A stretch of 55,837 nt of DNA from Campylobacteraceae bacterium. Lineage in GTDB: Bacteria; Campylobacterota; Campylobacteria; Campylobacterales; Campylobacteraceae. The stretch is taken from assembly GCA_031276075.1 (NCBI GenBank), contig JAISNU010000042.1:1-55837 (forward strand), written 5' to 3'. This document shows, piece by piece, positions 3,908-55,167 of the stretch. How positions within the stretch are numbered: the stretch's first letter is position 1; the number at the start of each line of letters is the position of its first letter. Both the position numbers and the translations under genes were made by a program. Under the pieces are notes generated by a model that was not told the origin of the DNA, made no database searches, and saw nothing but the letters and a program-made list of their open reading frames with translations.

Positions 3908-4403
3908 TATTGGCGAGAAGCAAAATGGTGAAACAATCCAAAAAATGCGTCCCTTTCCGTCATTGAGAGGAGCAGAATCGCGCCTTTCTCCGTCATTGCG
4001 AGGCACGAAGTGCCGCGGCAATCCATTCTTTCTTGTAATTACGCCTTTTTTTTGTCATTGCAAGCAAAGTATAGCAATCTCCCCATTCCGTCATTGCGAG
4101 CCGCTTGCGGCGCGGCAATCCAGAATTTATAATAACAAAAAGAGTGTTATTTATAGAAAAATAGATAATCATTTTTTCTTGTTTATGTTATGGATTGCTT
4201 CGTCATACTGCGTATTCCTCGCAATGACGGAATTAGTGAGAAAAACGGCTTTGCTTCATTTTTTATTCTGGATTGCTTTGTCGCTATGCTCCTCGCAATG
4301 ACGGAGTATGGCAATAAATTGCTTCCTGCTTCGCAAGCTTGCGCTCGCAACGACGGAGAGAGAAGAGATTGTTGTGCCGGCTTTGTCAGTTTACAATGAC
4401 GGA
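3908..4403. repeat. Hairpin-repeat island A: about 5 forward arms then 4 reverse arms
   Basis: Forward arms at about 3908, 3957, 3990-4025, 4053-4080 and 4088-4122. Reverse arms at 4191-4231, 4268-4305, 4316-4347 and 4367-4403. Consensus is CCGTCATTGCGAG-[hairpin]-CGCGGCAATCCA or its reverse complement. Confidence 0.9.
4088..4231. mobile_element. MITE/BIME-like composite, core family 1 (about 70-bp AT-rich core between inverted arms)
   Basis: Forward arm 4088-4122, then core AATTTATAATAACAAAAAGAGTGTTATTTATAGAAAAATAGATAATCATTTTTTCTTGTTTATGTTA, then reverse arm 4191-4231. Related cores occur at 10083-10220, 25490-25635 and 25838-25992. Confidence 0.55.
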
Positions 4404-4701
4404 AAAATATACAATGCAAAATACTGTTGGCTCGTCTCTATCTTCGCGAACAGATGATTGTTGATGCAGACAATACTGTTAACTTGCAATGTTTGCGGTA
4501 ATGGAAAAAAATAGATAATAATGAAAAAAAGATATGATGGCATATATATGGTTGCAATAACAAGATGCAAGAGTTTTATTTTTGACAAGCAAATACAGTG
4601 CAGGTGAACTTTTTTATATTTTATTTTCGGAGAAACATCGCAAGAAGTATGAAAATTCAAAAACATTACAAACATACAGTCGGACAATTTTCATTTTTAC
4701 A

Positions 4702-4718
4702 CGGAACACTTTTTGCAT
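4702..4718 (+). promoter_or_regulatory. Sigma-54 (RpoN) -24/-12 promoter
   Basis: CGGAACACTTTTTGCAT, with GG at 4703-4704 and GC at 4715-4716 (exact GG-N10-GC spacing). It matches the epsilonproteobacterial GGAAC-N6-TTGC form. It lies about 30 nt upstream of the ATG at 4749, with AAAAGG at 4734-4739. Confidence 0.6.
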
Positions 4719-4748
4719 ATATAGCTAAAAAATAAAAGGCGTTATTTA

Positions 4749-5861
4749 ATGTACGCAACAAGCGAAGCGACTTACAGTTTTGCAAAAAAATTTTCCCATT
4801 ATAAAGATTTTTATATAAAACATAATGATTTGTATTTTTCAAAATTGGGATTTGGGACATTCAAAAAAGAGCCGTATAGAGAGGAAAATTATGATTTTGA
4901 CTACAAAGAGGCTTTAAAATCGGCGATTTTAGGCGGTATAAATGTCATAGACACGGCTATAAATTACAGATATCAGCAGAGCGAAAAAGAGATAGGCGAA
5001 GTTTTGCGTTTTTTGTTTGAAAGCGGCGAAGCAAAGCGTGATGAATTGATAGTGTGCTCAAAAGGGGGTTTTATACCGCTTGATTTTCCTTTTCCGAAAA
5101 ATCCATACGAATGGATAGCGGACAATATCATAAACAAAGGATTTGCAAATAAAGAGGATATAGAGTTAGACCAGCACTGCATGACAACGCCGTTTTTGAA
5201 AGCATCTTTGGATAAATCGCTTGAAAATCTCTCTTTAAAATGTATAGACATATATTTTTTGCATAATCCAGAAATGCAATTACAAAGACTTGGAACTAAA
5301 AAGTTTTTGAAGCAATTAAAAGATATTTTTGCGCTTTTTGAAGAGGCGGCGTTTATGGGTAAGATAAGAAATTACGGTATCGCCGTTTGGAATGCTTTTA
5401 CATACGACGAGAGCAACAGCGAATATATAAATTTGCAAAGCGTTTATGATGCGGCGCGGGAAGCGGGCGGCGAAAATCACCGCTTTAAATATATACAGCT
5501 TCCTTTCAACATAGCAAAAACCGAGAGTTACAGGGTAAAAAATCAAAAAATGGCAGACGGGAATTATTGCACCCTTTTGGAAGCCGCCAACAAGCTTAAT
5601 GTGGGCGTTATCGGCAGTTCGTCGCTTTTTCAAATGCATCTTTTCAGAAAATCTTTCAAAGCCGAAGTCGGTTATTTATTGAATGAGGACATGAGATTGA
5701 AAAGCGATATAGAGCTTGCTTTGCAGTTTGCCCGCTCTACAAGAGGTATTTTGACCTCTCTTTTTAGTTCAAAAACCCCGCTGCATGTAAAAAGCAATCT
5801 AAACATAGCTCATGTAAATGCGGCAAATGTATCAAAATACAATCTTTTATACAGGCTTTGA
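4749..5861 (+). CDS. Aldo/keto reductase family oxidoreductase (long, 370 aa)
   Basis: GINVIDTAINYRY (the DTA..Y motif), IYFLHNP, and TIM-barrel AKR-like spacing. The stop overlaps the start region of the next gene. Confidence 0.8.
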   Translation: MYATSEATYSFAKKFSHYKDFYIKHNDLYFSKLGFGTFKKEPYREENYDFDYKEALKSAILGGINVIDTAINYRYQQSEKEIGEVLRFLFESGEAKRDELIVCSKGGFIPLDFPFPKNPYEWIADNIINKGFANKEDIELDQHCMTTPFLKASLDKSLENLSLKCIDIYFLHNPEMQLQRLGTKKFLKQLKDIFALFEEAAFMGKIRNYGIAVWNAFTYDESNSEYINLQSVYDAAREAGGENHRFKYIQLPFNIAKTESYRVKNQKMADGNYCTLLEAANKLNVGVIGSSSLFQMHLFRKSFKAEVGYLLNEDMRLKSDIELALQFARSTRGILTSLFSSKTPLHVKSNLNIAHVNAANVSKYNLLYRL

Positions 5862-5863
5862 AA

Positions 5864-7501: not shown

Positions 7502-7514
7502 TAAAGGAGTGCGA

Positions 7515-9207: not shown

Positions 9208-9386
9208 AATCAAGATAAAATAACCAAAACACTTTAAGATTGCGGTTTTTTTAAAAGTGTTACTAACAGTCGCAATGATGTTTAATTTTTATGATACTGC
9301 TTAAAAATTTGGCTGCTATTTAATCTCGCAATATTATTGTAAATCAAATCATATCAAAGCTCTGTCGATTTGCTTTTTCTGTTTAA

Positions 9387-9430
9387 CCGCACAAATATTT
9401 CAGCAGCTTTGTGCGGATTTTATCTTTTTA
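9387..9430 (+). terminator. Rho-independent terminator-like hairpin plus T-tract in an intergenic region
   Basis: CCGCACAAA (9387-9395), 12-nt loop, TTTGTGCGG (9408-9416), then ATTTTATCTTTTTA. It lies 180 nt after the bEBP stop. Confidence 0.55.
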
Positions 9431-9638
9431 TTTGTCCTCATAATGCTATTATAAACTTTATGATTGCAGCAAGGTTAAGAAACGGCAATAGTTCTTTAAG
9501 CTCATAATTTTATTATAAACCGTATGACTATCTATATTCATCGTGTTGTATGCGTTTTTGTTTGGGATCATAATGCCATTGCAAACTTTGCGATTACAAA
9601 GAAGTTAAAAAACAGTAATGACTTTTGCAAACCTTTTT

Positions 9639-9834
9639 GTCATTGCAAGGAGTGTGAAGCACGACTAAGCAATCCAGATACATGAAGCGTCATAAAAAAT
9701 ATTACAATGTAAAAACATGAAATAAATTAAATTTGGAGTTGATAATTTATACCTTTTGGGTATTTATATTTTTTGTATTGTTTCATTGAGTTTTTTGTTT
9801 TTCTTGGATTGCCGCACTTCGCTCGCAATGACGG
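9639..9834. mobile_element. MITE/BIME-like composite, core family 3 (core in inverted orientation)
   Basis: The roughly 125-bp core between arms 9639-9677 and 9805-9834 is the reverse complement of the cores at 20551-20753, 25260-25441, 30628-30812 and 48911-49117. Confidence 0.55.
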
Positions 9835-10082
9835 AAAGGCATGTTTTTTTATCTATTATTTTGTTGTTTCATTCCCTGCAAATGACACATGCACTTTGCT
9901 TGTTGCAAAAAATAGCAACTTTTTCCGTCATTGCGAGCTGACGAAGTCAGCGAAGCAATCCAGAAAAATATCTGTAAAAATAATAGTTTTTTAGTGCCAT
10001 ACATAGGCAAACAAAAAACAAAAACCTACTTCCAATACACATTATTTTCTATCACTCCCACGCGTTCAGCAATCCACTTTTT

Positions 10083-10220
10083 CCGTCATTGCGAGGCACG
10101 AAGTGCCGCGGCAATCCATACTTTAATAATAACAAAAAAGCGTCATTTTAAAAAAAATAGATAATTCTTTTTTATTTATAATTATGGATTGCTTCGCCGC
10201 AAACGGCTCGCAATGACGAA
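10083..10220. mobile_element. MITE/BIME-like composite, core family 1
   Basis: Forward arm (GGCAC-GAA-GTGCC variant), then core CTTTAATAATAACAAAAAAGCGTCATTTTAAAAAAAATAGATAATTC..., then reverse arm. Confidence 0.55.
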
Positions 10221-10612
10221 GGAGGAGCGTTTTTTTATTGCTTTGCCGTTTCATTTATTGCAATATTGGATTGCTTTGTCATATTGCGTATTCCTCGCAA
10301 TGACATAGAGGATAGCTGCATGATATAATATGGCAAATTGCTTCGTCGTGCTTTGCAAGCTTCGCACTTCTCGCAATGACAGAAGGGCGCATTTTCTTGA
10401 TTGCCGCGCAACACTTTTAATAGTGGAGGCAGTGAAGAAAGTAAAAATTCCGCGCATGCTACATATTACTATGCAACGCTTCCAACAACGGTAGGTGTTT
10501 TTTGGATTATTTTATTGTTTGATTTTTTTTGCTATTTTGGATTTTTACATTAAAATATACTTTTTAAAAAATTGCTTTCTATTTATAAATATGGCGGCAA
10601 TTTTTTCGTCTG

Positions 10613-19498: not shown

Positions 19499-19931
19499 TC
19501 CTGCCTTTTTGCCCCAAAAGCAAAGCTGCTTTTGAAATACCCAAATCTTGCGTATGTGTTTGAATATTTGTGTATGGAGATGACAAAGCGGGATACATGT
19601 AAATAACGAAAGTAAGAATTGTATGGAATTTGGCGTGAGTGTCAAACCGCAAAAATATGCGGCCAAAACAGCCTCATAATGCCGTATTTATCGCTATTGT
19701 ATAAAATTTTCTAAAATAACATAATTATCGCTTTTGACACATACGAACGAAAATAAAAGTCGTGCGAAATTTGGCGCAGGAATGACAAAAAATAGTAATG
19801 ACGGAAAGAGTATATGCGTTTTTGCTTGTCATTTTATGTTTCTTTTCGCCATTTTTGCGGTTGAATTAAGAGCGAAGCGCATTCCTGAAACACTTCCTAT
19901 GCAAAAAGTTCGCATAAAAAACCATACTGTT

Positions 19932-20286
19932 TTGTTGAGTTAATAAGCGTTGTATTGAAATTTGGTTACGCTTGCAAACAAAGAAATAATTTCTTAGTTG
20001 AACCAAAACAAGCATTGTATTAAAATTAAATAAAGTTTGGAAAATAGAGTGCATTATCTGCATGAACCAAAACAAGCGTTGTATTTAAATTTGATAAAAC
20101 CTCTTAGAGGATTAACTTCGTCTTTCATGAACGCAATGGCGGGCGCGGTGGGCGCGGGCGGACTTGGTTAGGGGATTAACTTCGTCTTTCATGAACCAAA
20201 ACAAGCGTCGTATTGAAATTGTCTCCTCTTTTTGTAAAATAATAAGCGAATAACTCCATGAACCGATACAAGCGTTGTATTTCCCC
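19932..20286 (+). CRISPR. Degenerate orphan CRISPR-like array (6 units, 30-nt repeat, 34-37-nt spacers)
   Basis: Repeat consensus is CATGAACCAAAACAAGCGTTGTATTGAAAT. Copies: 19932-19961 (only the 3' 17 nt conserved), 19997-20026, 20061-20090, 20126-20155 (only CATGAAC kept, the rest replaced by G-rich sequence), 20190-20219, and 20257-20286 (3' end degenerate). Spacers are 35, 34, 35, 34 and 37 nt. The repeat has an internal palindrome (CAAAACAA-GCG-TTGTATTG) and ends in ATTGAAAT. No cas genes are in the window and the repeats carry many SNPs, hence the low confidence. Confidence 0.4.
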
Positions 20287-20306
20287 CGTCATTTTTACGC
20301 CTGCCT

Positions 20307-20440
20307 CCGTCATTGCGAGGAGTGTAACGACGAAGCAATCCATAATCATGAATAAAACAATTATTTAGTTCCCTGCAATAAACTCTTTTTGTTATTGTAA
20401 GGTATGGATTGCCGCGACACTTTGTGTCTCGCAATGATGA
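20307..20440. mobile_element. MITE/BIME-like composite, core family 2 (short variant)
   Basis: The core ATAATCATGAATAAAACAATTATTTAG...TTATTGTAAGGTA aligns with the 3' part of the family-2 cores. It appears to lack the segment between two CAATCC direct repeats. Confidence 0.5.
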
Positions 20441-20550
20441 AAAAAAATGTCATTACAAAATTCTGTCATTGCGAGGAGTGCGAAGCACAACGAAGCAATC
20501 CATAACTGCGCATAAGACAAATTTCCGTTTTTACAGGAATAACAACCTCT

Positions 20551-20753
20551 GTCATTGCGAGCTTACGAAGTCAGCGCGGCAATCCAGAAGAATAAAAAAA
20601 TCAACAAAACAATACAAAAAAATCCAAATATTCAAAAATATAATTATCAACCAAAAATTTAAATTATTTCATATTTTTTTTAATTGTAATATTTCGATGT
20701 TTATAATACTTCGCGTATTTGGATTGCTGCGCCGCAAGCGGCTCGCAATGATG
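20551..20753. mobile_element. MITE/BIME-like composite, core family 3
   Basis: Forward arm, then core AATAAAAAAATCAACAAAACAATACAAAAAAATCCAAATATTCAAAAATATAATTATCAACC...TTATAATACTTCGCGTATT, then reverse arm. Confidence 0.55.
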
Positions 20754-20776
20754 AAAAAAACTAAACCTCCTCCCTT

Positions 20777-20936
20777 CCGTCATTGCGAGGAGTGTAACGA
20801 CGAAGCAATCCAGAAATAATATAAAAACAATCCATAATCATAAACAAAGGCAGTTATTCATTTTTCTAAAATGGTGCTATTTCATTATTGTAAAATATGG
20901 ATTGCCGCGCCAATTATATTGGTTCGCAATGACGGA
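20777..20936. mobile_element. MITE/BIME-like composite, core family 2
   Basis: Forward arm, then core AAATAATATAAAAACAATCCATAATCATAAACAAAGGCAGTTATTCATTTTTCTAAAATGGTGCTATTTCATTATTGTAAAATA, then reverse arm. Confidence 0.55.
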
Positions 20937-21173
20937 GGAAGTGCTTTTTGCTTCATTATTTTTTTCTACAATGACAAAAAAAGAACTTCTATGAAAGGTA
21001 TAGATTGCTTCGTCCTACCACGCTTCGCTCGTAGTCCTCGCAATGACGGAGAAAAATTGTCATTACAAAATTTCATCATTGCGAGCTGACGAAGTCAGCG
21101 CGGCAATCTAGTTATTGCTATAAATGAAATGGCGACGCAATCCGCACTTTTCATCATGTAAGCGTCCCCTTCT

Positions 21174-21308
21174 GTCATTGCGAGGAGTGCGAAGCACAAC
21201 GAAGCAATCCAGAAAAACAGCATAAAAACAATCCATAATCATAAATAAAAATAGCTATTCATTTTTTTAAATGATACTATTTCATTATTGTAAAGTGCGG
21301 CAATCCAG
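21174..21308. mobile_element. Core family 2 composite, right arm replaced or truncated
   Basis: Same core as 20777-20936 and 54395-54552. It ends ...TTGTAAAGTGCGGCAATCCAG, a forward-arm 3' half, instead of a reverse arm. Confidence 0.45.
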
Positions 21309-21417
21309 AACCTAAAAAGGCAAAAATATTATTGATAATATAAAGAGTGTCGATTTTAATCGTAATTTATCCCTTTTTTGATAAAATCGCAGCTTATCTA
21401 CTTTCAAAGGAAAAATT

Positions 21418-24775: not shown

Positions 24776-25031
24776 GATAGCGAAATGGCAAGAGGATTTG
24801 CTTAAAGTGACTGTTTTATTGATAATAGCGTTTATTATTTGCATTCTATTTTTCAGGATAATCGCAGGTATAGCTTTGATTATTTTGGGAATTTGGCTCG
24901 AGATAGTATGGCTTGGGATATGCTTTGGCAGCATTATACTCGGCATCGTTTTACTGTTGTGCGCTCCTCATATATTAACATTACCTCTTATCGTTTGTGA
25001 AATTGGCTTGGAAGTGATGAAGGGCAACTAA
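24768..25031 (+). CDS. Small hydrophobic membrane protein (hypothetical)
   Basis: Three predicted TM helices. Only TTG (24768) or GTG start codons are available, and the ORF overlaps the kdsB stop. No family recognised. Confidence 0.45.
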   Translation: MLEIAKWQEDLLKVTVLLIIAFIICILFFRIIAGIALIILGIWLEIVWLGICFGSIILGIVLLLCAPHILTLPLIVCEIGLEVMKGN

Positions 25032-25259
25032 TGAAAGTTTAAGGATTGAAATGCGGCTACGAGGCTGCTATTTATTATTTCTGCGGCTGAAGCGAAGCGC
25101 ATATTGTGATGGCAAGCCAGAATCCAGTCGTTATAATAAATAAGCCGAAAAATTTCCTTTCAGTCATTGCGAGCTGCTGAAAAGAAGCGAAAGTTTTTTG
25201 CAAAGCAAAATGTTTCCTATGCAAAATATATTCTATAAAGCAGTGCGGCAGTTTCTCTT

Positions 25260-25441
25260 CCGTCATTGCGAGCGAAGCGCGGCAATCCAAAAATAAAAAA
25301 ATCAACGAAATAATACAGAGAAATTCAAATATCCAAACATGTAAATTATCAACTTCAAATTTAAGTCTTTCATGTTTCATAACGCTTCGCGCATGTGGAT
25401 TGCTTCGTCAGTCGTTACACTCCTTCCCTCGCAATGACGGA
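25260..25441. mobile_element. MITE/BIME-like composite, core family 3
   Basis: Core AAAATAAAAAAATCAACGAAATAATACAGAGAAATTCAAATATCCAAACATGTAAATTATCAAC...CATAACGCTTCGCGCATG lies between inverted arms. Confidence 0.55.
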
Positions 25442-25489
25442 ATTACCGCTTTATTTACATGGTAGAATCCATGCAGACACAATCTTTTT

Positions 25490-25635
25490 CGTCATTGCGA
25501 GGGAAGCGCGGCAATCTAGAATTTACAATAATAAAAAAGTATTAATAATACATAAAACCGACTTTTTGTTTACATGTATGGATTGTTTTATATTATTTTC
25601 TGGATTGTCGCGCCGCAAGCGGCTCGCAATGACGA
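25490..25635. mobile_element. MITE/BIME-like composite, core family 1 variant
   Basis: Core AATTTACAATAATAAAAAAGTATTAATAATACATAAAACCGACTTTTTGTTTACATGTA. It is near-identical to 25838-25992. Confidence 0.55.
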
Positions 25636-25837
25636 AAAAGAGGACTTGAATGATGAAAAATATGGATTGTTTTGTTATTGTATTTTTCGCAATAGATGGA
25701 TTGCTTCGTTGCGTTTCGCACTCCTCGCAATGGCGGAACAATGTTATTTTTGTTTGCATGGATTAAATTTTACACAATGACCTATTTTTTGTTATACCCG
25801 CGCAGGCGGGAATCCAGAAAACAAGAAAACATATTTT

Positions 25838-25992
25838 GTCATTGCGAGCTGACGAAGTCAGCGTAACAATCTAGAATTTACAATAATAAAAAAGTATTAA
25901 TAATACATAAAACCGACTTTTTTGTTTACATGTATGGATTGTTTTATATTATTTTCTGGATTGCCGCGCCACAAGCGGCTTGCAATGACGGA
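25838..25992. mobile_element. MITE/BIME-like composite, core family 1 variant (duplicate of 25490-25635)
   Basis: The core and right arm are almost identical to the copy about 350 bp upstream. Confidence 0.55.
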
Positions 25993-26368
25993 AGGGTATT
26001 TACAAATAATAAATGGATTGCTTCGTCGTGCTTCGCACTCCTCGCAATGACGGAATCGATTATTATTATTTTTGTTTGTGTGGATTATTTCTTGTTCGGT
26101 ACTTATCGCAATAATAAAAGGAATGTTCGCATGATGAAAAGTGTGGATTGTTTTGTTATTACATTTCCCGCAATAACAAAATAGAAAAAGATAAAACTCC
26201 GATGATATTAATATTCTTAGCAGACTGCGCTTCGCTCGCAATGACTGAGGAAAGGACTTGCATGATGAAAGGAGTGGATTATTTCGTTATTTTATTGTAA
26301 TGACGCAAAAATGAATACATGTTCATGTAAGAGTGTAAAAATGCAGAATATAATTTGAAAATTTAGCT

Positions 26369-26980
26369 TTATCCGTCTTGATTTACGGCTATCAATTCGT
26401 CTCTTAGCCTATCCAAAAACTCCTGTTTTGTTTCGCCCTCTTTTAATTTTACGGCATTTCCGACAGTAAGAGCGCAAAGAAAAGGCAGAGGGATAAAATG
26501 TCCCTTGGGCATAACTCTTTTTAAATTATCGAGCCAAATCGGAACTATCTCAATATCGGGATTTTCTTTTGCCAACAAGTAAATTCCCGCCTTAAAAGGC
26601 AGCAAGTTATCCTCCTTATTTCTTGTGCCCTCAGGAAATATGATAATGGAATAACCGTCTTTTAACGCTTCAAATACGGGTTTTAGCGGGTTTATGGTTT
26701 TTGCGTTTCTATCAACCAAAACCGCGTTGAACATTTTATGTATCATAAATCTATGAATGGGCGTTTTTGTCCAATAATCCGCCGCCGCAATAGCCCTTGT
26801 GTTTTCTCGTATCCGTTTTGGAAGAGCCGACCAAATAAGCACAAAGTCGGCATGAGAGCTGTGATTGGCGTAATATATCCGCTGTTTTTCAAGAGGTTCG
26901 CATCCTCTCCAGATGAGCCTTACGCCTGTGAGAATTTTTGCAAAAGTTATCAGCAAAACTACGCAAACTTTATCAAACAT
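26369..26980 (-). CDS. Lysophospholipid (1-acyl-glycerol-3-phosphate-type) acyltransferase family protein
   Basis: HX4D motif NHSSHADF. FPEGTR motif IIIFPEGTRNK. 203 aa. Confidence 0.8.
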   Translation of the reverse strand: MFDKVCVVLLITFAKILTGVRLIWRGCEPLEKQRIYYANHSSHADFVLIWSALPKRIRENTRAIAAADYWTKTPIHRFMIHKMFNAVLVDRNAKTINPLKPVFEALKDGYSIIIFPEGTRNKEDNLLPFKAGIYLLAKENPDIEIVPIWLDNLKRVMPKGHFIPLPFLCALTVGNAVKLKEGETKQEFLDRLRDELIAVNQDG

Positions 26981-26989
26981 AAAAATCCT

Positions 26990-28744
26990 TTAATTGCGCA
27001 CAGCGATGGAAACCGTAAAAATTCCCCAAATATCAATACGCATCGTTATCTTTGTAAATCCCGCGTTTTGCACTAACTGATCCAACTCTCTTGTCGTTCG
27101 TCTGCGCATAACCCACGGTTTACCGCCTTGATGGCTCGGTAAAACTCTTGCTATATATTCAAGCTGCGGATGCCACGGCTGTCCCGTGTATATAAGAAAA
27201 CTGCCGCTTTGCATTGAAGAGGCTAAACCTTCAAGAGAGTTTTTTATCATGTCGTTATCGCTGAACAATTCATACAAGCCCGAAACTATCGCAAGCGTTG
27301 GTTTAGTTTCTAAAGACGCAAGAGAGTTTTTGTCAAATGCGTCTCCATGTTCAAACTTCACAACTTTGTCAAGATTTTTAGCTTTTATTAACTCTTGTCC
27401 GTTTTTGACATTTATTTCGCTAAAATCTCTAAGCAAAACGGAATTTGGCAAAGGTTTCATTTGGCTGACGCTGTCCAACACATATCTTCCTCCGCCTGCG
27501 GCTATATCAACGATATCTACGCTTTTGCCTTCATCTCTTAACTTTTTTACGCAAAATCTTAAAAGCTCTTCCAAGTGGATTTTGCGTACTCTGATGCCGC
27601 GCCAGCCGATTGACCTTAGATAGATAAAATCCACAAACGCGCCAAATTCAGTATCGCCTGAGGGTTGGTTTTTATAAACATAATCAAGCGAACTTCCGGA
27701 GTCAAATCCTCTCTCAAAGCCCAATTTAACGCCGTCTGATACCAAGCTTGCGTATTTGACAAGAGATCTGTTAATGTCCCAATAAATGTTTTTAAAAAAT
27801 CCCGCGCTCATGGACAACTTGTCAGCCTCCGCTCTTGTATAGCCTATCTTGTCGGCGTCCAAAAGAGACGGAAATTCAGGCGCGCTTTCAAAACATTTCA
27901 GTATAAATCTTTTTATCTTTTCCATTGCCAAGCGCCGCTCTTTTTCGCTGAAAATATCGTGATAAAAGCCGGGCATTTCATGGCATTCTTTTTGCGGGCT
28001 GCTTAAATTATTAAAAAATCTTTTTTGCGCGCCTTTTTTTACCACAAAATCCTTTCCGGCTATGAACATTTGTATCGGCGTATAGATAGCGTTTGCGTCT
28101 TCAACGACTCTTTTTGAAGCTGCGTTTGCTCCCAATAAAATCTTTACGGGTATATCTTTTGTGATTTCTTCATCTTTGTTATAAGAGTCTATTCTATCTT
28201 TATCATGCGTTAAATACGAAGCTTTGACATAGCTTTTGACTTTGAAATTGCCTCTTAAATTGTATAATAAATTCAATCCGCTCAAAGCAAACGGCACAAA
28301 AAGTCTGATATTAAACGCGCATGCTCCCAAAACCAAAGCCCTTATGTTCGGCGCATAATCATGCGCCCACAAAGCCGCCGCAACCGCGCCGATACTTTGC
28401 GCTATAACGGCTATATTTTCTTCTTTTATGTTATAACTGTTTTTGATATGCTCTACGAAATATTGCAAATCTTTGGCAAAGTCGGCAAACTCCGCGTTAT
28501 CAGCATTTTGCGATTTTGATTTGCCGCATCCTCTCATATCCCATGCGAAAAATTCAAACTCGTCAAGTTCCAATTCGTCTGTTAAATGCGCAATTCTCAA
28601 AGAGTGTTCATGCCCTCTATGAAGCAAAATAACGGCTTTTTTACCGCCGCTTTGCGTTTTGCCCGCCCAATATTTGTAATGTATATCGCTTCCATCGAAG
28701 CTTTTAAAACTAGCACTATTCATTTTCCGCCTTTTTAAGAGCAT
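26990..28744 (-). CDS. Fusion protein: N-terminal alpha/beta-hydrolase (lysophospholipase-like) and C-terminal class I SAM-dependent methyltransferase
   Basis: N-half: HRGHEHS, nucleophile-elbow-like IAQSIGAV, late HD (FYHDIF). C-half: motif I VDIAAGGGRY, plus DFSE, HGDAFD and SGLYELF. The start may instead be the internal ATG (MNSASF...). Confidence 0.75.
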   Translation of the reverse strand: MLLKRRKMNSASFKSFDGSDIHYKYWAGKTQSGGKKAVILLHRGHEHSLRIAHLTDELELDEFEFFAWDMRGCGKSKSQNADNAEFADFAKDLQYFVEHIKNSYNIKEENIAVIAQSIGAVAAALWAHDYAPNIRALVLGACAFNIRLFVPFALSGLNLLYNLRGNFKVKSYVKASYLTHDKDRIDSYNKDEEITKDIPVKILLGANAASKRVVEDANAIYTPIQMFIAGKDFVVKKGAQKRFFNNLSSPQKECHEMPGFYHDIFSEKERRLAMEKIKRFILKCFESAPEFPSLLDADKIGYTRAEADKLSMSAGFFKNIYWDINRSLVKYASLVSDGVKLGFERGFDSGSSLDYVYKNQPSGDTEFGAFVDFIYLRSIGWRGIRVRKIHLEELLRFCVKKLRDEGKSVDIVDIAAGGGRYVLDSVSQMKPLPNSVLLRDFSEINVKNGQELIKAKNLDKVVKFEHGDAFDKNSLASLETKPTLAIVSGLYELFSDNDMIKNSLEGLASSMQSGSFLIYTGQPWHPQLEYIARVLPSHQGGKPWVMRRRTTRELDQLVQNAGFTKITMRIDIWGIFTVSIAVRN

Positions 28745-29318
28745 TTTTTACTCTGTTGAAAATTGTTAAACAAAGCAGTATTGCAACCGCTAAAAGTATA
28801 TAGTCTATAAAATTTAAAAATATGCCGGCTCCTGCTATAACGCCTAAAACCCCAAATACAAAAGCCCTGTCGCTTTTCCCCATAGGTCCGTCATATCTGC
28901 GCTCTTTTCCTATCAAAGGCGCCATAACGCCCGCATATTCGCTGATAATAGATAAAATAACAACGGCTGCGACAAGCTGCGCGTTTGCCGTTAAAGCAAA
29001 AATAATATACAAAGCGCAGTCCGATACCACATCGCAAAGTTCGTTCAGATATGCTCCAAGATCGCTTTTTTGATTAAATTCGCGAGCCAGCATCCCGTCG
29101 ATTGCATTCAGTGCCATTCGTATAAACATCCAAACAGGAATGAGATAAAAAAGCCATTTTATTTGGGCGTTTTGCCAGATAATAAAACTCACTGCCAAAG
29201 AGCCGAAAAGCGCGAAAAGCGTTACATGATTTGCGGTAATTTTTATTTTATATAACCGCTTCACCAGAGGACGAAGCAGATTTTGGAATTTCTGTTTTAA
29301 TTGATATATTGATGCCAA
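28716..29318 (-). CDS. CDP-alcohol phosphatidyltransferase family protein
   Basis: Signature D-G-x2-A-R-x8-G-x3-D-x3-D is present as DGMLAREFNQKSDLGAYLNELCDVVSD. 200 aa, multi-TM. Confidence 0.85.
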   Translation of the reverse strand: MASIYQLKQKFQNLLRPLVKRLYKIKITANHVTLFALFGSLAVSFIIWQNAQIKWLFYLIPVWMFIRMALNAIDGMLAREFNQKSDLGAYLNELCDVVSDCALYIIFALTANAQLVAAVVILSIISEYAGVMAPLIGKERRYDGPMGKSDRAFVFGVLGVIAGAGIFLNFIDYILLAVAILLCLTIFNRVKNALKKAENE

Positions 29319-29342
29319 CTTTACTCTCCTTAATAAAAAAAT

Positions 29343-30269: not shown

Positions 30270-30514
30270 AAATTTTCTTAAAAATTAAATTTTGTTTGAT
30301 ATTCTAACCCAATGTTCTTTAAATTATCTTCAATATTGACAATTTTTACATTGCAGCGAGCAAGGCGTATCAGGTTAATGCGAGGAACACATATAGCGCG
30401 CAGTCAGGATAAGTCATCAAAAAGTGGCAAGATGGAATTTTGTTTGATGCGGTTTTTTGGATTTTTCATTTGTAGCATTAAATTTGAGGATACTTCATGC
30501 TGCTGAATTACTGT

Positions 30515-30968
30515 GTCGCTCCTTGCAATATCTGGATTGCCGCGCTCCCTCAATGACGGAATTGGTGGAATGATAAAGGGCATAGGAATATGATCAATTT
30601 CACTATTGCATGAAATTCTCCAGCTCTGTCATTGCGAGGAGTGCGAGCGAAGCGTGGCAGGACGAAGCAATCCAGAAAAAAATACAACCATGAGAAGTCC
30701 AACAATCAAAAAATATAAATTATTCCATGTTTTTTAATTGCAATATTCTTTCATAACGCTTCGCGTCTGAATTGCTTCGTCAGTCGTTACACTCCCTCCT
30801 CGCAATGACGAAGAGATGCGCATGTGCTTTGTGTGCGCAGTTAATAAGAGCGTTTTTTGGATTGCTTCGTCGTTGCACTCCTCGCAATGACAGAAGATGA
30901 GTTTTGGTTTGCCAAAGTATGCGGGAATGACATTTTTCCCGTCATTGCGAGCGAAGCGCGGCAATCCG
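30515..30968. repeat. Hairpin-repeat island E (about 6 arms)
   Basis: Reverse arms at 30532-30560, 30767-30812 and 30858-30896. Forward arms at 30628-30675 and 30949-30968. Confidence 0.9.
30628..30812. mobile_element. MITE/BIME-like composite, core family 3
   Basis: Core AAAAAAATACAACCATGAGAAGTCCAACAATCAAAAAATATAAATTATTCC...TTCATAACGCTTCGCGTCTG lies between inverted arms. Confidence 0.55.
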
Positions 30969-31148
30969 CATTTTGCATAACAAAAAGAGCGCATTCATAA
31001 TGAATAAACACTTTGCTGCATGCACGGATTGTTTTAGTGCGGCAATAAGTTTGCTAAAAACCAAGCGCTTTTAAAACGGATAGTTGCTAAAAGTGTTCTA
31101 TCGTTTTTTGCATCGTGAAAAAACGCCGCGCAGAGTTTTTTGCACAGG

Positions 31149-46109: not shown

Positions 46110-46110
46110 A

Positions 46111-46953: not shown

Positions 46954-46963
46954 TGTGTTTTTT

Positions 46964-46997
46964 GTCATTGCAAGGAGCGTTAGAGACGAAGCAATCC
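46964..46997. repeat. Solo forward hairpin-repeat arm 11 nt after the radical SAM stop
   Basis: GTCATTGCAAGGAGCGTTAGAGACGAAGCAATCC. Confidence 0.85.
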
Positions 46998-47116
46998 GAA
47001 AAGAAAAACAATCCAAAACATACAAAAAAACTGCAAAAATATTTTATCTACCTTGATTTTAGCTTTGGAATTGATTAAAATAATATTCTGTATAAAAAAA
47101 TATTTAAGGAAATATA

Positions 47117-47629
47117 GTGAAAACAGTCTTAAAGTTATTAATCAGTACAGTACTGCTTGGCAGTTTAGCTTTTGCCAATGATTTTGGTGAAGCTTTTAAA
47201 GCTTATGAAAAAGGCGATTATAAAAAAGCCTCCGAACTTTTTAAAAAATCATGCGATGGGGGAGATGCCGGGAGTTGCGGTGCTTTAGGATATATGTATG
47301 AACAAGGCAAAGGTGTTAAGCAAGACTATTTTAAAGCGGCAGAACTTTATAAAAAGGGTTGCGATGGAAGAAATACTTGGAGCTGCGGTAATTTAGGATT
47401 AATGTATGAATACGGCAAAGGTGTTAAGCAAAACTATTTCAAAGCTGTTAAACTTTATAAAAAAGGTTGCGATGGAGGAAATGCTGGGAGTTGCGGTAAG
47501 TTAGGAGTTTCTTATGAATCAGGCAAAGGCGTGAAAAAAGACATAAATAAAGCTCTTGAATACTACGGTAAAGCGTGTGATTTGAAAGAGCAAAAAGGGT
47601 GTGAAGATTACGCGAGATTGAAAAAATAG
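47117..47629 (+). CDS. Secreted Sel1-repeat, cysteine-rich protein (Hcp-like), 4 repeats
   Basis: GTG start after AAGGAAA. Signal peptide. Repeats C.GG.A.SCG.LG.MYE.GKGVKQ.YFKA..LYKK. Confidence 0.85.
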   Translation: MKTVLKLLISTVLLGSLAFANDFGEAFKAYEKGDYKKASELFKKSCDGGDAGSCGALGYMYEQGKGVKQDYFKAAELYKKGCDGRNTWSCGNLGLMYEYGKGVKQNYFKAVKLYKKGCDGGNAGSCGKLGVSYESGKGVKKDINKALEYYGKACDLKEQKGCEDYARLKK

Positions 47630-47697: not shown

Positions 47698-47771
47698 TGT
47701 CATTCCCGCGGCTGAACGACAAGTTCTGTGAAGCGCATATCGTGAAATTGCGGCAAGAATGCGGCAATCCA
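47698..47771. repeat. Expanded forward-type repeat arm just upstream of the HIT gene
   Basis: TTTGTCATTCCCGCGGCTGAACGAC...GAATGCGGCAATCCA. Confidence 0.6.
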
Positions 47772-48171: not shown

Positions 48172-48332
48172 GATTTTGTGAAACGCCGTTTTATTTATAA
48201 GTACAACTTTTTATTAACAACAAATACATTGGTATTTCAGCAATTATTTATATTTGAAATAGAACACAACAGAGTTAGCGGTAAAAATCCGAATGATTTT
48301 TGATTGGTTGAAATTATTTTTGCATTTTTGTT

Positions 48333-49312
48333 GAGCGTTCGGCAATCCACCTTTTCATCATTGCGAGGAGTGTAGAGATGAAGCAATCCAAAACACATCT
48401 CACTTCGTTATTACGAGCTGACGAAGTCAGCGCGGCAATCTACGCCTTTCATTACACAAGTTCTCTTTTTAATTATTGCGAAACACAAAGTGTCGTAATA
48501 ATTCAGAAAATGCCTGTTCCTCCGTCATTGCGAGCCATTGAAAACGGCGCGGCAATCTATATAAAATAAGACAGTAATAATGACCAATTTCACCATTGCA
48601 TGAAATTTTCCAGCTCCGTCATTGTGAGGACTGCGAACAAAGCGTGGGCAGGATAAAGCATCCGTCATTGCGAGGAGCATTAGCGACGAAGCAATCCATT
48701 AAGACGCTTGCGTTTTTATTTTTTAACCTAAGGGTTGAAAATTGAAATTCAAAGTTTGTGCGAATAAAGAAAAATTCTGGATTGCCGCGCTTCGCTCGCA
48801 ATGACGGAATGGAATTCCTGCGCCTTACCTTGTAAGTTTATCGTTTGGTAGAGAGAATGACATAAGAAGGGATATGAATGGCAGAAAAGGAAAACGGGAA
48901 TCCATTTTTTTCATCATTGCGAGGAACGCAGAGATGAAACAATCCAGAGAAATAAAAAAATTAACCAAGCAATACAGAAAATCCAAATATCAAAAAATGT
49001 AAACTATCAACCCCAAATTTAATTTTTTTATTCTTTCTATTACAATATCTTGATGTTTTATAACGCTTCGCGTATCTGGATTGCTTTGTCATACTGCGTA
49101 TTCCTCGCAATGACGGAGAGGCGTGTTTTTTTGGTTGTGAATTTTTTGCTGTACTTATAATAATTGGATTGCTTTGTCCTGCCGCGCTTCGCTTGCACTC
49201 CTCGCAATGACAAAAGGATAAATTGCTTCACTTTTTTGTTTTCATACAATGATAGAAAGTTGGTTTTTGCCGCTTCCTTACAATGACAGAGAGAAATCGC
49301 GGGAATGACAAA
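48333..49312. repeat. Hairpin-repeat island H (about 13 arms)
   Basis: Forward arms at 48355, 48405, 48470, 48522, 48616, 48661 and 48911. Reverse arms at 48778, 49076, 49163, about 49270 and about 49300. Confidence 0.9.
48911..49117. mobile_element. MITE/BIME-like composite, core family 3
   Basis: Core AGAAATAAAAAAATTAACCAAGCAATACAGAAAATCCAAATATCAAAAAATGTAAACTATCAACCCCAAATTTAA...TTTTATAACGCTTCGCGTATC lies between inverted arms. Confidence 0.55.
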
Positions 49313-49470
49313 GGAGGGCGTATATTTACATAGCAAAAAGGGTATATTTTCTCATGTATGACTTATACAAATGCTGCGGTTTGTGATTTTTTACCGCGCC
49401 AAGTCAATCCTCAATCGTAAGCCGTTTACCAACAAAAATTAACAAGCGCCCCTGCTAAAATATCCAAGTC

Positions 49471-52115: not shown

Positions 52116-52144
52116 CGTACTCCTTTAATTTTAAAAATCGTATT

Positions 52145-52474
52145 TTACCCTCTCGGAGCAAAATAGATAATAAAAACGCCGATTAAAACTATAAATATGC
52201 CGATTGCGTCATATCTGTCTGGCAAAAAACCGTCAAATTTCATGCCCCAAAGTACAGACATTAAGATAAAAATTCCGCCGTAAGCCGCGTAAACTCTTGC
52301 AAAATTTGAAGGCTGCAAAGTTGCCATAACTCCGTAAAGTGCAAGTATAATCCCGCCCAAAAGCCCGTAACTCCAATGCTTGCCGCTTCTTAGCCAAAGC
52401 CAGATAAGATATCCGCCGCCTATTTCGCAAAGTCCCGCCAAAAAGAATATGGATAATGTTTTTACAGCCAGCAT
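52145..52474 (-). CDS. ynfA: YnfA (UPF0060) family small membrane protein
   Basis: 109 aa. CEIGGGYLIWLWLR, RVYAAYGGIFI. Aligns by eye with E. coli YnfA. Confidence 0.8.
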   Translation of the reverse strand: MLAVKTLSIFFLAGLCEIGGGYLIWLWLRSGKHWSYGLLGGIILALYGVMATLQPSNFARVYAAYGGIFILMSVLWGMKFDGFLPDRYDAIGIFIVLIGVFIIYFAPRG

Positions 52475-52480
52475 AAAATT

Positions 52481-53932: not shown

Positions 53933-54180
53933 AATTGTTCCTTAGCTTGCTGTAGAGGTTGTTATAATACCCAAAACCGCATTAAAAAGTCAAAAAGAAA
54001 CGACTTTTTTATTATTGCGAACAGGTCGCGGCAAAAATCTGTTTTTTCGTCATTGTGAGCCATTGGAAACGGCGCGGCAGAAATCTGGTCTTTCATAATT
54101 GTGAGCTTCAACTTTTTTTCAAGTTCAGAGTAGATATTCTTCTCTTTGTCATTGTGAGCTTGCGAAATCAGCGCGGCAAT

Positions 54181-54412
54181 CTGGAAAATAAAAAGATAAA
54201 ATAATTCATTCCTCTCCATCATTGCGAGGAATACGCAGTATGACGAAGCAATCCAGAAAACCAGCTGCTCTGCCGCTAAACCTTTTTTACTGTATATATT
54301 CCCTTTTTCGTCATTGTAAGACATGCAGTATTGTGGCGTTCCAGAAAAACACCCTTATATTCTTATACCACATAGCAAAGTTCACACACTCCTTCGTCAT
54401 TGCGAGGAGTAT
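54181..54412. repeat. Copy 1 of an approximately 232-bp direct segmental duplication inside island I
   Basis: Near-identical to 54784-55014 (offset 603 bp), with only a handful of substitutions. This is visible as the two near-identical spurious ORFs at 54222 and 54825. Confidence 0.9.
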
Positions 54413-54552
54413 GGCGACGAAGCAATCCAGAAAATAGCATAAAAACAATCCATATTCATGAACAAAAGCAGCTATTCATTTTTCTAAATGATAACCATTT
54501 CATTATTATAAAGTATGGATTGCCGCGGCACTTCGTGCCTCGCAATGACGGA
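54395..54552. mobile_element. MITE/BIME-like composite, core family 2
   Basis: Core AAAATAGCATAAAAACAATCCATATTCATGAACAAAAGCAGCTATTCATTTTTCTAAATGATAACCATTTCATTATTATAAAGTA lies between inverted arms. Confidence 0.55.
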
Positions 54553-54783
54553 GACGGGAATTTTATGAATTGCTTCATAATACTTCCAATGACAGAATTA
54601 GTGAAAAAACGGCTTTGTTTTCTTTTTTATTTTGGATTGCTTCGTCCTGCCGCACTTTGCTTGCACTCCTCGCAATGACGGAGCAATAGTTTTTTGATCT
54701 GGATTGCTTCGTTGTTGCATTTCTTGCAATGATGAAGAAAGTGTCTATTTGCATAAAATCTATTGCGAGCGAAGCGCGGTAAT

Positions 54784-55014
54784 CTGGAAAATAAAAAGAT
54801 AAAATAATTCATTCCTCTCCGTCATTGCGAGGAATACGCAGTATGACGAAGCAATCCAGAAAACCAGCTGCTCTGCCGCTAAACCTTTTTTACTGTATAT
54901 ATTCCCTTTTTCATCATTGTGGGACATGCAGTATTGTGGCGTTCCAGAAAAACACCCTTATATTCCTATACCACATAGCAAAGTTCACACACTCCTTCGT
55001 CATTGCGAGCCGTT
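54784..55014. repeat. Copy 2 of the approximately 232-bp direct segmental duplication
   Basis: See 54181-54412. Confidence 0.9.
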
Positions 55015-55167
55015 GAAGCGATAAAACAATCGCTATTATAAGTGCAATGAAATAATTCGCAACTAAAAAGCACTCTCTTTGTCATTGGAGACACGGAGCG
55101 TCGCGGCAATCCATAATTTACTATTAAAAAAATATTGCTGCAAAGAAATAAAACTTACCAAACCGTT

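Follow-up and report, generated by a model that had tools for sequence, protein, structure and literature searches.

Which process has filled the long intergenic gaps of a Campylobacteraceae chromosome with one family of short hairpin repeats, and in what form do these repeats act? The locus that raises the question is the 55,837-nt contig JAISNU010000042.1 (GenBank assembly GCA_031276075.1, Campylobacteraceae bacterium), analysed at its full length and referred to here as the window. A preliminary description, made from the sequence alone, had recognised the hairpin family and considered it functionally unexplained. We find instead that the family, called the ATTGCGAG type below, is an uncatalogued member of a kind described in 2013, the prototype of which was explained mechanistically in 2025: its frame is that of the CGTC-tagged repetitive extragenic palindromes (REPs) and of the Ssn-related motifs (SRMs), and the prototype is cut by the nuclease SsnA (PMC3733652, PMC11893778). 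Our preferred explanation, to which we give a probability of roughly 0.72, is that the repeats are Ssn-related hairpin motifs of the CGTC-tagged super-family that act as single-stranded DNA (ssDNA) together with a clade-specific, putative Ssn nuclease.

The repeat was counted with the left-arm word GTCATTGCGAG, allowing at most one mismatch, which matches the window 55 times against 0.76 expected; none of 100 shuffles reached that number. Pairing of left with right arms gave 52 complete units, 26 on each strand. Thirteen matches were scored as a left arm only; in about six of these the right arm is present but diverged, so that the copy is complete, and two or three are chance matches. About six orphan right arms lie inside the islands listed below. 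The total comes to about 60 copies, or about 70 recognisable pieces, and the earlier count of about 90 copies was an overestimate. The units add up to 1.9 kb (3.5% of the window) and the eight intergenic islands that contain all true copies to 9.5 kb (17%); the density of about 6 kb or 11% quoted previously falls between these two figures. Within each island the unit orientations are mixed, and across the window the spacing is irregular (9-359 nt) with spacers that are themselves repeated. The islands occupy five co-directional and three convergent gaps, whereas neither of the two divergent gaps, which are short, contains a copy. The genes around the islands belong to the ordinary chromosomal complement of an uncultured Campylobacteraceae lineage, with Tgt and ThrC 85-93% identical to proteins of metagenome-assembled genomes (MAGs) named "Campylobacteraceae bacterium", in keeping with the Campylobacter-type genome first proposed. 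All long open reading frames (ORFs) in the window are housekeeping genes and, as the preliminary description had noted, no transposase of the RAYT or any other type was found among them. The islands, which have no strand of their own, are:

Island 1: 3738-4748, between two plus-strand genes (pyridoxal phosphate-dependent decarboxylase, aldo/keto reductase); 5 full and 2 diverged units.
Island 2: 9208-10612, between convergent genes (sigma-54 activator on the plus strand, Sel1 protein on the minus strand); 7 units and 1 diverged unit.
Island 3: 19499-21417, between tgt (plus) and argB (plus); 10 full units.
Island 4: 24776-26368, between kdsB (plus) and an acyltransferase gene (minus); 9 full and 3 partial units.
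Island 5: 30270-31148, between cdsA (minus) and lnt (minus); 5 full units and one CGTC-1/NTS-type half copy.
Island 6: 46954-47116, a short gap after a radical-SAM/SPASM gene; 1 unit.
Island 7: 48172-49470, between a HIT gene (plus) and an FGE-sulfatase gene (minus); 8 full and 2 partial units.
Island 8: 53933-55154, between two minus-strand genes; 8 full and 3 partial units.

Read on the tagged strand, a unit has the layout YY-GTC / ATTGC / GA / G-[apex]-C / G-N-R / GCAAT / CC-A. A 5-bp basal helix (ATTGC with GCAAT) is followed by an internal loop and by an apical hairpin closed by a G...C pair. In the internal loop A stands opposite G, and the preceding G stands opposite A in copies with a CGAA tail or opposite C/T in copies with CGCG or CGTG tails, which leaves one bulged purine; tail types AA or YG account for 158 of 171 viral-contig copies. 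A long type carries an extra GA/GA step (GAG-GA-[stem]-GA-CGAA), and four nested units in the window have a second core in the apex of one hairpin, an arrangement that suggests formation or insertion of one unit within another. The foot is strongly conserved. Across 51 window copies ATT and CAAT are invariant, the T and C of the tag are kept in 50 and 49, and after the helix the first C is found in 49, the second C in 44 and the A that follows in 47; variation is concentrated at the tag G (A in seven copies), the internal-loop G (A in six) and the second tail C (T in seven). In viral copies the base before the tag G is C or T in 156 of 171, and A follows CC in 76 of 171, T being rare there. 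In subfamily alignments similarity begins a few pyrimidines before the tag and is lost 2-3 nt past CC, giving an extent of about 35-50 nt; direct repeats, such as the target-site duplication of a MITE, were found neither flanking the units in these alignments nor at the single filled-versus-empty site available. The recognisable units are:

3992-4024, plus: unit, apex GGCAC-GAA-GTGCC, tail CGCG
4054-4080, plus: degenerate unit, GCAAG ... GCAATCT
4090-4121, plus: unit, apex CCG-CTTG-CGG
4192-4228, minus: long-type unit, GA-ATAC-GCA-GTAT-GA; GAATACGCAGTATGACGAA subfamily
4270-4302, minus: long-type unit, GA-GC-ATA-GC-GA
4317-4354, minus: diverged unit, GTCGTTGCGAG ... GCAATT
9639-9675, plus: long-type unit, GTGTG-AA-GCAC
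9806-9832, minus: minimal unit, CGAAGTG
9927-9961, plus: unit, apex CTGAC-GAA-GTCAG
10085-10117, plus: unit, apex GGCAC-GAA-GTGCC
10186-10217, minus: unit, apex CCG-TTTG-CGG
10268-10304, minus: long-type unit, ATAC-GCA-ATAT
10336-10380, minus: diverged long unit, right arm GCAATT
20309-20341, plus: long-type unit, GA-GT-GTA-AC-GA
20406-20438, minus: unit, apex GACAC-AAA-GTGTC, tag ATC
20465-20501, plus: long-type unit, GTGC-GAA-GCAC
20551-20585, plus: unit, apex CTTAC-GAA-GTCAG
20721-20752, minus: unit, apex CCG-CTTG-CGG
20779-20933, no single strand: composite module, plus unit 20779-20811, 87-nt spacer, minus unit 20899-20933 (CCAAT-ATA-ATTGG)
21002-21047, minus: nested unit, second core ACGAG-CGAAG-CGTGGT within the apex
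21075-21109, plus: unit, apex CTGAC-GAA-GTCAG
21174-21210, plus: long-type unit, GTGC-GAA-GCAC
25262-25288, plus: minimal unit, GCGAAGC mini-hairpin
25397-25438, minus: extended-apex unit
25491-25517, plus: minimal unit
25602-25633, minus: unit, apex CCG-CTTG-CGG
25698-25734, minus: long-type unit, GTGCG-AAA-CGCA
25838-25872, plus: diverged unit, apex CTGAC-GAA-GTCAG, right arm ACAATCT
25958-25989, minus: unit, apex CCG-CTTG-TGG
26015-26051, minus: long-type unit, GTGC-GAA-GCAC
26145-26177, minus: decayed unit, GTTATTGCGGG ... ACAATCC
30534-30557, minus: truncated unit
30628-30673, plus: nested unit, TGCGAG-CGAAG-CGTGGCA within the apex
30769-30809, minus: extended-apex unit
30859-30891, minus: long-type unit, GT-GCA-AC
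30941-30967, plus: minimal unit
46964-46997, plus: long-type unit, island 6
48357-48389, plus: long-type unit, tag ATC
48407-48441, plus: unit, apex CTGAC-GAA-GTCAG, left arm decayed
48524-48558, plus: unit, apex CCATT-GAAAA-CGG
48664-48697, plus: long-type unit
48779-48805, minus: minimal unit
48913-48945, plus: long-type unit, tag ATC
49078-49114, minus: long-type unit, ATAC-GCA-GTAT; GAATACGCAGTATGACGAA subfamily
49166-49211, minus: nested unit
54049-54085, plus: diverged unit, GTCATTGTGAG ... GCAGAAATC
54148-54182, plus: unit, apex CTTGC-GAA-ATCAG
54218-54254, plus: long-type unit, ATAC-GCA-GTAT; GAATACGCAGTATGACGAA subfamily
54396-54428, plus: long-type unit, GT-ATG-GC
54517-54549, minus: unit, apex GGCAC-GAA-GTGCC
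54567-54593, minus: decayed unit
54634-54679, minus: nested unit
54701-54733, minus: long-type unit, tag ATC
54821-54857, plus: long-type unit, ATAC-GCA-GTAT; GAATACGCAGTATGACGAA subfamily
54999-55031, plus: diverged unit, right arm ACAATC

The two-helix hairpin is predicted with either DNA or RNA folding parameters, with ordinary energies (z of about -2.3 to +0.6), and the case for a hairpin therefore rests on covariation. Other genomes supplied 193 distinct inserts, of which 149 pair without mismatch down to a loop of at most six bases, through 47 distinct stems of 3-11 bp. A subset of 39 distinct 33-nt units, chosen by length only, gave the same picture: the two apical positions are paired in 37 and 38 of the 39, with four pair types each, and the next two positions are Watson-Crick or a G.A/A.G step. 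No shuffle out of 500 reached this level of apical pairing, and slid registers fell far below it. The outer helix covaries occasionally (ATCGC/GCGAT, ATGGC/GCCAT). The central proposals of the preliminary description are upheld by these data, namely a single oriented family whose flanks are conserved and whose inner stem differs between copies yet keeps its pairing (seven stem variants were checked and all lie at or beside the positions given for them), an additional outer ATTGC/GCAAT helix, and selection on, or a mechanism acting on, a folded nucleic acid.

That description had left open whether the hairpin works as DNA or RNA. Among 104 distinct triloop hairpins over the 47 stems, the loop is GNA in 63 and TNC in none, the closing pair is 5'C-G3' in 89, and tetraloops are mostly G-N-N-A. 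Likewise, the internal loop is purine-purine on the tagged strand and would be pyrimidine-pyrimidine on the other. Together these biases indicate a hairpin design that serves the tagged strand only; G.T against A.C mismatches (7 against 2) are too few to be useful as a further measure of asymmetry. C(GNA)G mini-hairpins, including the two-pair form seen in the minimal unit, are unusually stable in DNA. Single copies between co-directional genes lie with transcription in 22 cases and against it in 18, and neighbouring single copies share orientation in 39 cases and oppose it in 23, a weak trend (p=0.056). No T-run was found after the hairpins, terminator-like sites number one against 2.0 expected, and Rfam gave no match at the gathering score for the whole window and nothing relevant at E<=10 for island 3. 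Because the design is strand-specific and indifferent to the direction of transcription, the folded form is most likely ssDNA, which narrows the earlier DNA-or-RNA alternative to ssDNA; SsnA, too, is inactive on RNA.

Some members and motifs call for separate mention. The predicted best fold of the GAATACGCAGTATGACGAA subfamily pairs the tag CGTCAT with an internal ATGACG, without the basal helix (-8.4 kcal/mol with DNA parameters, z = -3.8). A K-turn or hammerhead-like GA motif was dropped because the geometry does not fit, and a tRNA-like CCA minihelix because conservation of CCA does not extend beyond the Campylobacteraceae lineage. A double-stranded DNA operator is disfavoured by the variable arm spacing and the obligatorily self-complementary insert.

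Other genomes were scanned with the exact frame GTCATTGCGAG-N5-32-GCAATCC, in which 18 nt are fixed, and metagenomes with a narrower pattern. At least 120 matching stretches were obtained from each of three sources: viral contigs, a set with one genome per species, and metagenomes. A few hundred chance matches to the frame would be possible in 596 Gb, but the matches are not the product of chance, given that the insert terminates in CGAA, CGTG or CGCG in 92% of cases and is mostly self-complementary, and that many loci are multi-copy. The frame is present in at least 11 bacterial phyla and in phage contigs, and the family ranks with the most widespread small repeats. Hosts among the 80 genome records listed include Alpha-, Beta- and Gammaproteobacteria, "delta" lineages, Campylobacterota (Helicobacter rodentium), Bacteroidota, Chloroflexota, Cyanobacteria, Melainabacteria, Bacillota, Patescibacteria, Zixibacteria, Planctomycetota and Armatimonadota, and the GC content of repeat-bearing metagenome contigs spans 26-72%. 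The matches listed from a metagenome scan aimed at the lineage itself were unrelated contigs. The wide distribution anticipated in the preliminary description is thus borne out at the DNA level. Its second expectation, that translated repeats appear as spurious hypothetical proteins, fared less evenly: the repeats do produce such peptides, but a protein search with a repeat-derived ORF gave one match at E<=1e-3. A search of this kind is too stringent for 10-residue motifs, and the breadth of the family rests on the DNA evidence. In the literature, no paper on the family was found by its DNA words or its peptides, the matches being only to primers and blood-group papers.

Elsewhere the usual form is an inverted pair in which the CC-A tails face each other across a non-conserved spacer of 20-24 or 30 nt; of 181 adjacent pairs, 135 are tails-facing in this way, often combining a short with a long unit. 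Phage contigs carry copies in successive intergenic gaps, and in-frame copies within genes also occur. In one phage contig (L046, 4707-4780) a heads-facing pair forms a 57-nt in-frame insertion in the portal protein gene, encoding the peptide ...ATPSARNDSPFVSLRGAEHRSNL...; the insertion is missing from the homologues L005 and L120, and no target duplication is visible at this sole informative empty site. The genes bracketed by copies are ordinary ones, such as those for 5'-nucleotidase, MurB, amidase, a pyrroloquinoline quinone (PQQ) dehydrogenase, luciferase-like and phage proteins, and no recurrent gene family adjoins the copies in 240 non-viral loci. Clustering of neighbouring ORFs of at least 90 aa gave phage structural genes, generic families and a small Ssn cluster from four loci.

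It is this small cluster that connects the hairpins to a candidate enzyme. In a sample of 360 loci (2.7 Mb) gathered solely because they contain the repeat, tblastn identified a GIY-YIG gene of 92-99 aa in seven, and it is to this small nuclease, not to the Y1/RAYT transposase previously suggested as the enzyme to seek, that the neighbourhoods point. At L216, L285, L340 and L359, ATTGCGAG-type copies lie about 6-56 nt from both ends of the gene, and the encoded proteins match only Pfam PF01541 (GIY-YIG), with E values of 2e-13 to 4e-16. Residues Y7, Y18 and E64 (numbered on a 94-aa protein) are invariant in the linked proteins and parallel Y6, Y17 and E64 of SsnA, which is also 94 aa long. A protein-first scan of viral contigs yielded 31 further Ssn-like loci, of which 30 were examined; tagged hairpins lie within 250 nt of the gene in 29 of these, belonging to the NTS, CGTC-3 and two GGTCCC types and, in L385, to the ATTGCGAG type. 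A GIY-YIG gene flanked on both sides by ATTGCGAG hairpins is therefore known from five loci in total (L216, L285, L340, L359 and L385). The linked proteins are 44-60% identical to proteins flanked by canonical NTS, and in a neighbour-joining (NJ) tree, which carries no support values, the five form one clade apart from the NTS, CGTC-3 and GGTCCC groups, so that the hairpin type follows the nuclease group. In both L216 and L359 a plus and a minus copy enclose the gene, which sits at the place where the common inverted pair has its 20-24-nt spacer, and the inverted pair thus looks like a gene-less miniature of a hairpin-ssn-hairpin unit. We also observed Ssn-like genes in viral loci L370, L372-L379, L382, L396 and L399 with GGTC-tagged hairpins (GGTCCCGG...CCGGGAT and GGTCCCAGCTTTCGCTGGGAT), sets that look like further nuclease/hairpin pairs outside the CGTC frame.

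The biochemistry of the prototype gives these associations a possible mechanism. SsnA is a 94-aa single-domain GIY-YIG protein in which mutation of Y6, Y17 or E64 abolishes cleavage, and it binds and cuts NTS (CGTCATTCCCGCGMAVGCGGGAATCYRG), the oriented long form of dRS3 (PMC11893778). It acts on ssDNA of the tagged strand only, ignoring the reverse strand, double-stranded DNA and RNA, and cuts a few nucleotides 5' of the motif (PMC11893778). Cleavage depends on the three bases 5' of the palindrome and binding above all on the C that follows it, while the loop is dispensable, any loop being tolerated and even replaceable by added stem (PMC11893778). The ssn gene is typically flanked by its motifs, and its homologues number in the thousands and differ in specificity; DNA carrying NTS transforms N. 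meningitidis less well when SsnA is present (PMC11893778).

By analogy, the functional form of the window repeats would be the ssDNA hairpin on the strand reading GTC-ATTGC...GCAAT-CC, acted on by a cognate single-domain GIY-YIG nuclease of about 95 aa from a hairpin-specific clade of the Ssn family. This nuclease is predicted to bind the invariant foot, that is the GTC tag, the ATTGC/GCAAT helix, the GA/GNR loop with its bulged purine and the C after the helix, and to nick ssDNA on the 5' side of the tag, a few nucleotides away. The apex would go unread and would need only to pair, so that it could vary freely in sequence and length. Transformation, replication, repair and conjugation are examples of occasions on which the tagged strand would be single-stranded and open to such action. 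The autonomous form would be hairpin-ssn gene-hairpin, with gene-less inverted pairs and single hairpins as its miniatures; copies may accumulate in dispensable 3' intergenic DNA, where they would be shuffled together with spacer modules at synteny breakpoints. If the N. meningitidis case is a guide, cutting of incoming or exposed ssDNA at these sites may modulate recombination and transformation around the flanked gene blocks.

The islands themselves record a history of exchange. With hairpins masked, 24% of spacer DNA recurs in other islands as modules of 80-130 nt. One 165-nt composite (plus unit, 87-nt spacer, minus unit) is present three times, at 20779-20933, 21174-21306 and 54396-54549, with spacers about 85% identical among the three copies and apices that are unrelated; conversely, about 15 apex types recur in differing flanks. 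Island 8 also contains an internal duplication of 247 nt (54160-54406 and 54763-55009, 96% identical). Since spacer modules recur, apices within them are unrelated and apex types are shared, the islands are mosaics in which apices turn over or exchange faster than their surroundings.

Comparison with sister MAGs shows that the family expanded recently and lineage-specifically within the Campylobacteraceae lineage, because 12-21 kb of syntenic sister-MAG DNA holds only 0-1 ATTGCGAG-type copies against 52 in the 56-kb window, and a different hairpin occupies the tgt spot. A syntenic block of 8.2 kb shared with L242 at 84% nucleotide identity ends exactly at the tgt stop, which is the start of island 3; at this spot the sister MAGs carry another tagged hairpin, YCGTCATTCCCGCGNAGGCGGGAATCCA (NTS type), and no ATTGCGAG-type copy in 12-21 kb. 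Only 46 nt and no island separate kdsB from lnt in L368; in the window these two genes are separated by island 4, a four-gene phospholipid block and island 5. At the island 4 spot L367 carries one copy. The block between the two islands (26369-30269) encodes an acyltransferase, a hydrolase/methyltransferase, a CDP-alcohol phosphatidyltransferase and CdsA, and it is missing between kdsB and lnt in L366 and L368 and lies in a different context in L367. The repeat islands thus bracket a relocated gene block and mark points of rearrangement.

Other elements were also noted. Left-arm relics of the NTS/CGTC-1 type (GTCATTCCCGC) lie at 30921-30931 (minus), 47699-47709 (plus), 49299-49309 (minus) and 19776-19786 (minus), giving three to four half copies in the window, while in L242 and L243 intact NTS/CGTC-1-type copies follow closely after tgt, so that the hairpin family at a given spot differs between close relatives. 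The 5' part of island 3 contains, at 19935-20285, a decayed CRISPR-like array of five repeats of about 30 nt (ATTTAAATACAACGCTTGTTTTGGTTCATG, minus strand) spaced about 64-130 nt apart, scoring 28.3 and 25.1 bits against Rfam CRISPR-DR3, below the gathering score of 41, and no cas genes were found in the window. In L242 the spot of the window's island 2 and Sel1 gene is taken by an intact CRISPR array (1040-2000, upstream of an FtsH-like gene) with about 14 copies of a 36-nt repeat (ATCTACAACAGTAGAAATTAATTTGAGAGTCTAGAC). A second Sel1-repeat gene, at 47117-47629, contains three tandem 108-nt repeats (47216-47539, 71-77% identical) that reflect the ordinary 36-residue Sel1 periodicity and bear no relation to the hairpins.

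Several points weigh against a nuclease-linked ssDNA motif as the explanation. Neither an Ssn-like gene nor a relic of one was found in the 55.8 kb window, and no such gene or relic was found in seven related-MAG loci (~116 kb, two of them from the same region). The best Ssn profile match in the window (E 0.016) is a hairpin translation, VIARSVRDEAIRKEKQSK at 46964-46997, that mimics AIxREKQIK; as a relic of an ssn gene it was rejected as a chance resemblance. Four of the five linked loci were found via the repeat itself, which is an ascertainment bias, and the tree is a quick NJ one. The equal strand numbers (26:26) and the lack of tight dimers fit accumulation in islands and recombination, and are silent on how copies spread. 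The apical loop bias could be partly inherited from a GCGAAGC founder. Lastly, 19% of genomes with more than 200 SRMs lack an SsnA homologue, and SsnA activity is lost when the NTS palindrome sequence is changed (PMC11893778), so that NTS specificity cannot be transferred to the ATTGCGAG hairpin.

How do other explanations fare with the same observations? Template-switch correction of quasi-palindromes is an established mutational process, and by this means, or by exchange between copies, apical complementarity could arise with no function needed. The three 165-nt composites with 85%-identical spacers and unrelated apices, the roughly 15 apex types recurring in different flanks and the cores nested within apices are all what such mutation mechanics would leave behind. 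However, at least 47 stems of 3-11 bp in unrelated genomes share a strand-specific C(GNA)G loop (63 GNA against 0 TNC), a design that strand-neutral copying does not predict and that disfavours it; we regard this origin as possible but doubtful, and in any case compatible with the preferred explanation. Less probable, and in our judgement unlikely, is that the copies are orphan selfish or neutral relics of a hairpin-ssn-hairpin element that was lost or never held here, shuffled by homologous recombination and inactive today. The missing nuclease gene in the window and in the relatives' loci, and the 19% of SRM-rich genomes without SsnA (PMC11893778), would be explained at once, as would the many decayed, truncated or arm-only copies. 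Seven copies also have ATC in place of GTC, at a position important to SsnA cleavage, and the 24% of spacer DNA duplicated between islands shows that local duplication or recombination contributes. Against this, comparison with the sister MAGs (0-1 copies in 12-21 kb, as opposed to 52 in the 56 kb here) marks the burst as recent, and the foot is 96-100% conserved over 51 copies while apices and flanks differ, which is unexpected of old neutral relics.

A role at the RNA level, with 3'-untranslated hairpins affecting mRNA stability, termination/attenuation or RNase sites as proposed for classical REPs, would account for islands at gene 3' ends (five co-directional and three convergent gaps, none of two divergent), for phage copies in successive intergenic gaps and for the fact that RNA folding gives the same two-helix hairpin. 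It is nevertheless very improbable, given the lack of transcription bias (22:18), both orientations within every island, no T-run, no excess of terminator-like sites and no Rfam match; folding energies are unremarkable, and the GNA mini-hairpin of the minimal unit is generally known as a DNA-stable motif. SsnA, moreover, ignores RNA (PMC11893778). The unpaired 4-nt tag 5' of an imperfect hairpin and the predominance elsewhere of inverted pairs with a 20-24 nt spacer (135 of 181) recall instead a classical REP/REPIN mobilised by RAYT, a Y1 HUH transposase of the IS200/IS605 type. The tag, however, is (C/T)GTC and not GTAG, no Y1 transposase was found in the window or beside copies in the 360 loci, and CGTC repeats have no transposase association (PMC3733652). 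With no recurrent family in the 240 non-viral loci, housekeeping genes inside the brackets and a GIY-YIG gene in 7 of 360 loci, mobilisation by RAYT is scarcely credible.

Returning to the Ssn-related ssDNA motif as the preferred explanation, a bolder extension would be that the ATTGCGAG hairpin and its own clade of ~95-aa GIY-YIG proteins form an autonomous cross-phylum mobile unit, with gene-less hairpins moved in trans by ssDNA nicking. We put this forward as speculation and think it rather unlikely. Were it true, a GIY-YIG ssDNA nuclease would be the engine of a REPIN-like system, parallel to RAYT/REP but of a different fold; the apex, being unread, would be a payload free to evolve rapidly, and the burst in this Campylobacteraceae lineage would be a live case of one nuclease/hairpin pair displacing another, namely the NTS type seen in the sisters.

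On a practical level, the new elements here are the bipartite-stem family, its invisibility to the published search pattern, its own nuclease clade and its burst into mosaic islands. The published SRM pattern under-counts these elements, and users should be aware that a common source of spurious "hypothetical proteins" and broken assemblies may now be linked to a defined enzyme family. A short invariant foot with a free apex would represent a second natural nuclease/hairpin specificity class, and a modular site of this kind bears directly on the suggestion that Ssn enzymes could serve as programmable ssDNA cutters. Many Campylobacterota are naturally transformable, and this island-rich region would suit tests of the effect of Ssn and hairpins on recombination outside Neisseria.

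How, then, does the family compare with known systems? CGTC-tagged REPs carry a terminal CGTC, TGTC or CCTC that takes no part in pairing, a stem whose first pairs are A-T and T-A, a short loop and a CCA tail, and occur mostly as inverted dimers between co-directional or convergent genes, with occasional intragenic copies and no transposase (PMC3733652). Four families in five phyla were described, CGTC-1 comprising Neisseria dRS3 and Rickettsia RPE-6, and the authors noted that bulged types may have escaped their survey (PMC3733652). The window family shares the unpaired (C/T)GTC tag, the A-T/T-A stem start, the unpaired CCA tail, the co-directional and convergent placement, inverted dimers in most genomes, in-frame intragenic copies and the absence of an adjoining transposase. 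In contrast, it lacks tight dimers in the window; it has a 5-bp helix, a GA/GNR internal loop and an apical stem of 2-11 bp with mostly 3-nt loops in place of 8-9 continuous bp and a 4-5 nt loop; its peptides (VIARS..EAIQ, RHCE.., LRFARNDG, SLAMT) match none listed for CGTC-1 to CGTC-4; and it ranges over at least 11 phyla and phage contigs against five phyla. A match to a characterised REP, which the preliminary description had named as an outcome to look for, thus exists at the level of kind and not for the exact family, which is missed by Rfam, by the CGTC peptides and by the SRM string alike.

Among systems that resemble the family less closely, GTAG REPs with their BIME and REPIN-RAYT arrangements share a tagged imperfect ssDNA hairpin, gene-less inverted doublets as miniatures and lineage-specific expansions, but differ in the tag (GTAG/GTGG as opposed to GTC) and in the enzyme fold (HUH-Y1 as opposed to GIY-YIG). 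Integron attC sites are alike in principle only, with conserved feet, a self-complementary variable centre, extrahelical bases and one folded strand; they were rejected for lack of R''/R' GTTRRRY boxes, an integrase or cassette organisation. A CRISPR array was likewise rejected for the hairpin units on account of irregular spacing, both orientations and repeated spacers.

The closest relationship is with SRM/NTS. The published SRM string, HGTCWYN(0-2)YYVSBRHN(0-5)WNVSBRGN(0-2)RNCYNB, is a search tool derived from 29 genomes and not a biological definition (PMC11893778). It gave 0 matches to the window copies while the NTS control passed, because it demands pyrimidines (YY) where the family has GC. 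The NTS stem is a continuous 8 bp (ATTCCCGC) with a 4-nt loop, as opposed to ATTGC, a GA/GNR loop and a 2-11 bp apical hairpin, and the putative ATTGCGAG-linked nucleases form their own clade. In other respects the two agree: both are oriented hairpins with an H-GTC-WY start, an R-N-C-Y end and a variable loop, spread over many phyla in hundreds of copies clustered around gene blocks; the tag and the C after the helix are the bases that SsnA needs, and ATTGCGAG copies flank single-domain GIY-YIG genes of ~94 aa at five loci elsewhere. The window is also reminiscent of the NIME-type mosaic regions of Neisseria, built around dRS3/NTS. The hairpin family differs, dRS3/NTS being present in the window only as three to four half copies, but in both cases long intergenic islands carry tagged hairpins in both orientations interleaved with 80-130-nt modules, flank gene blocks and coincide with rearrangement points.

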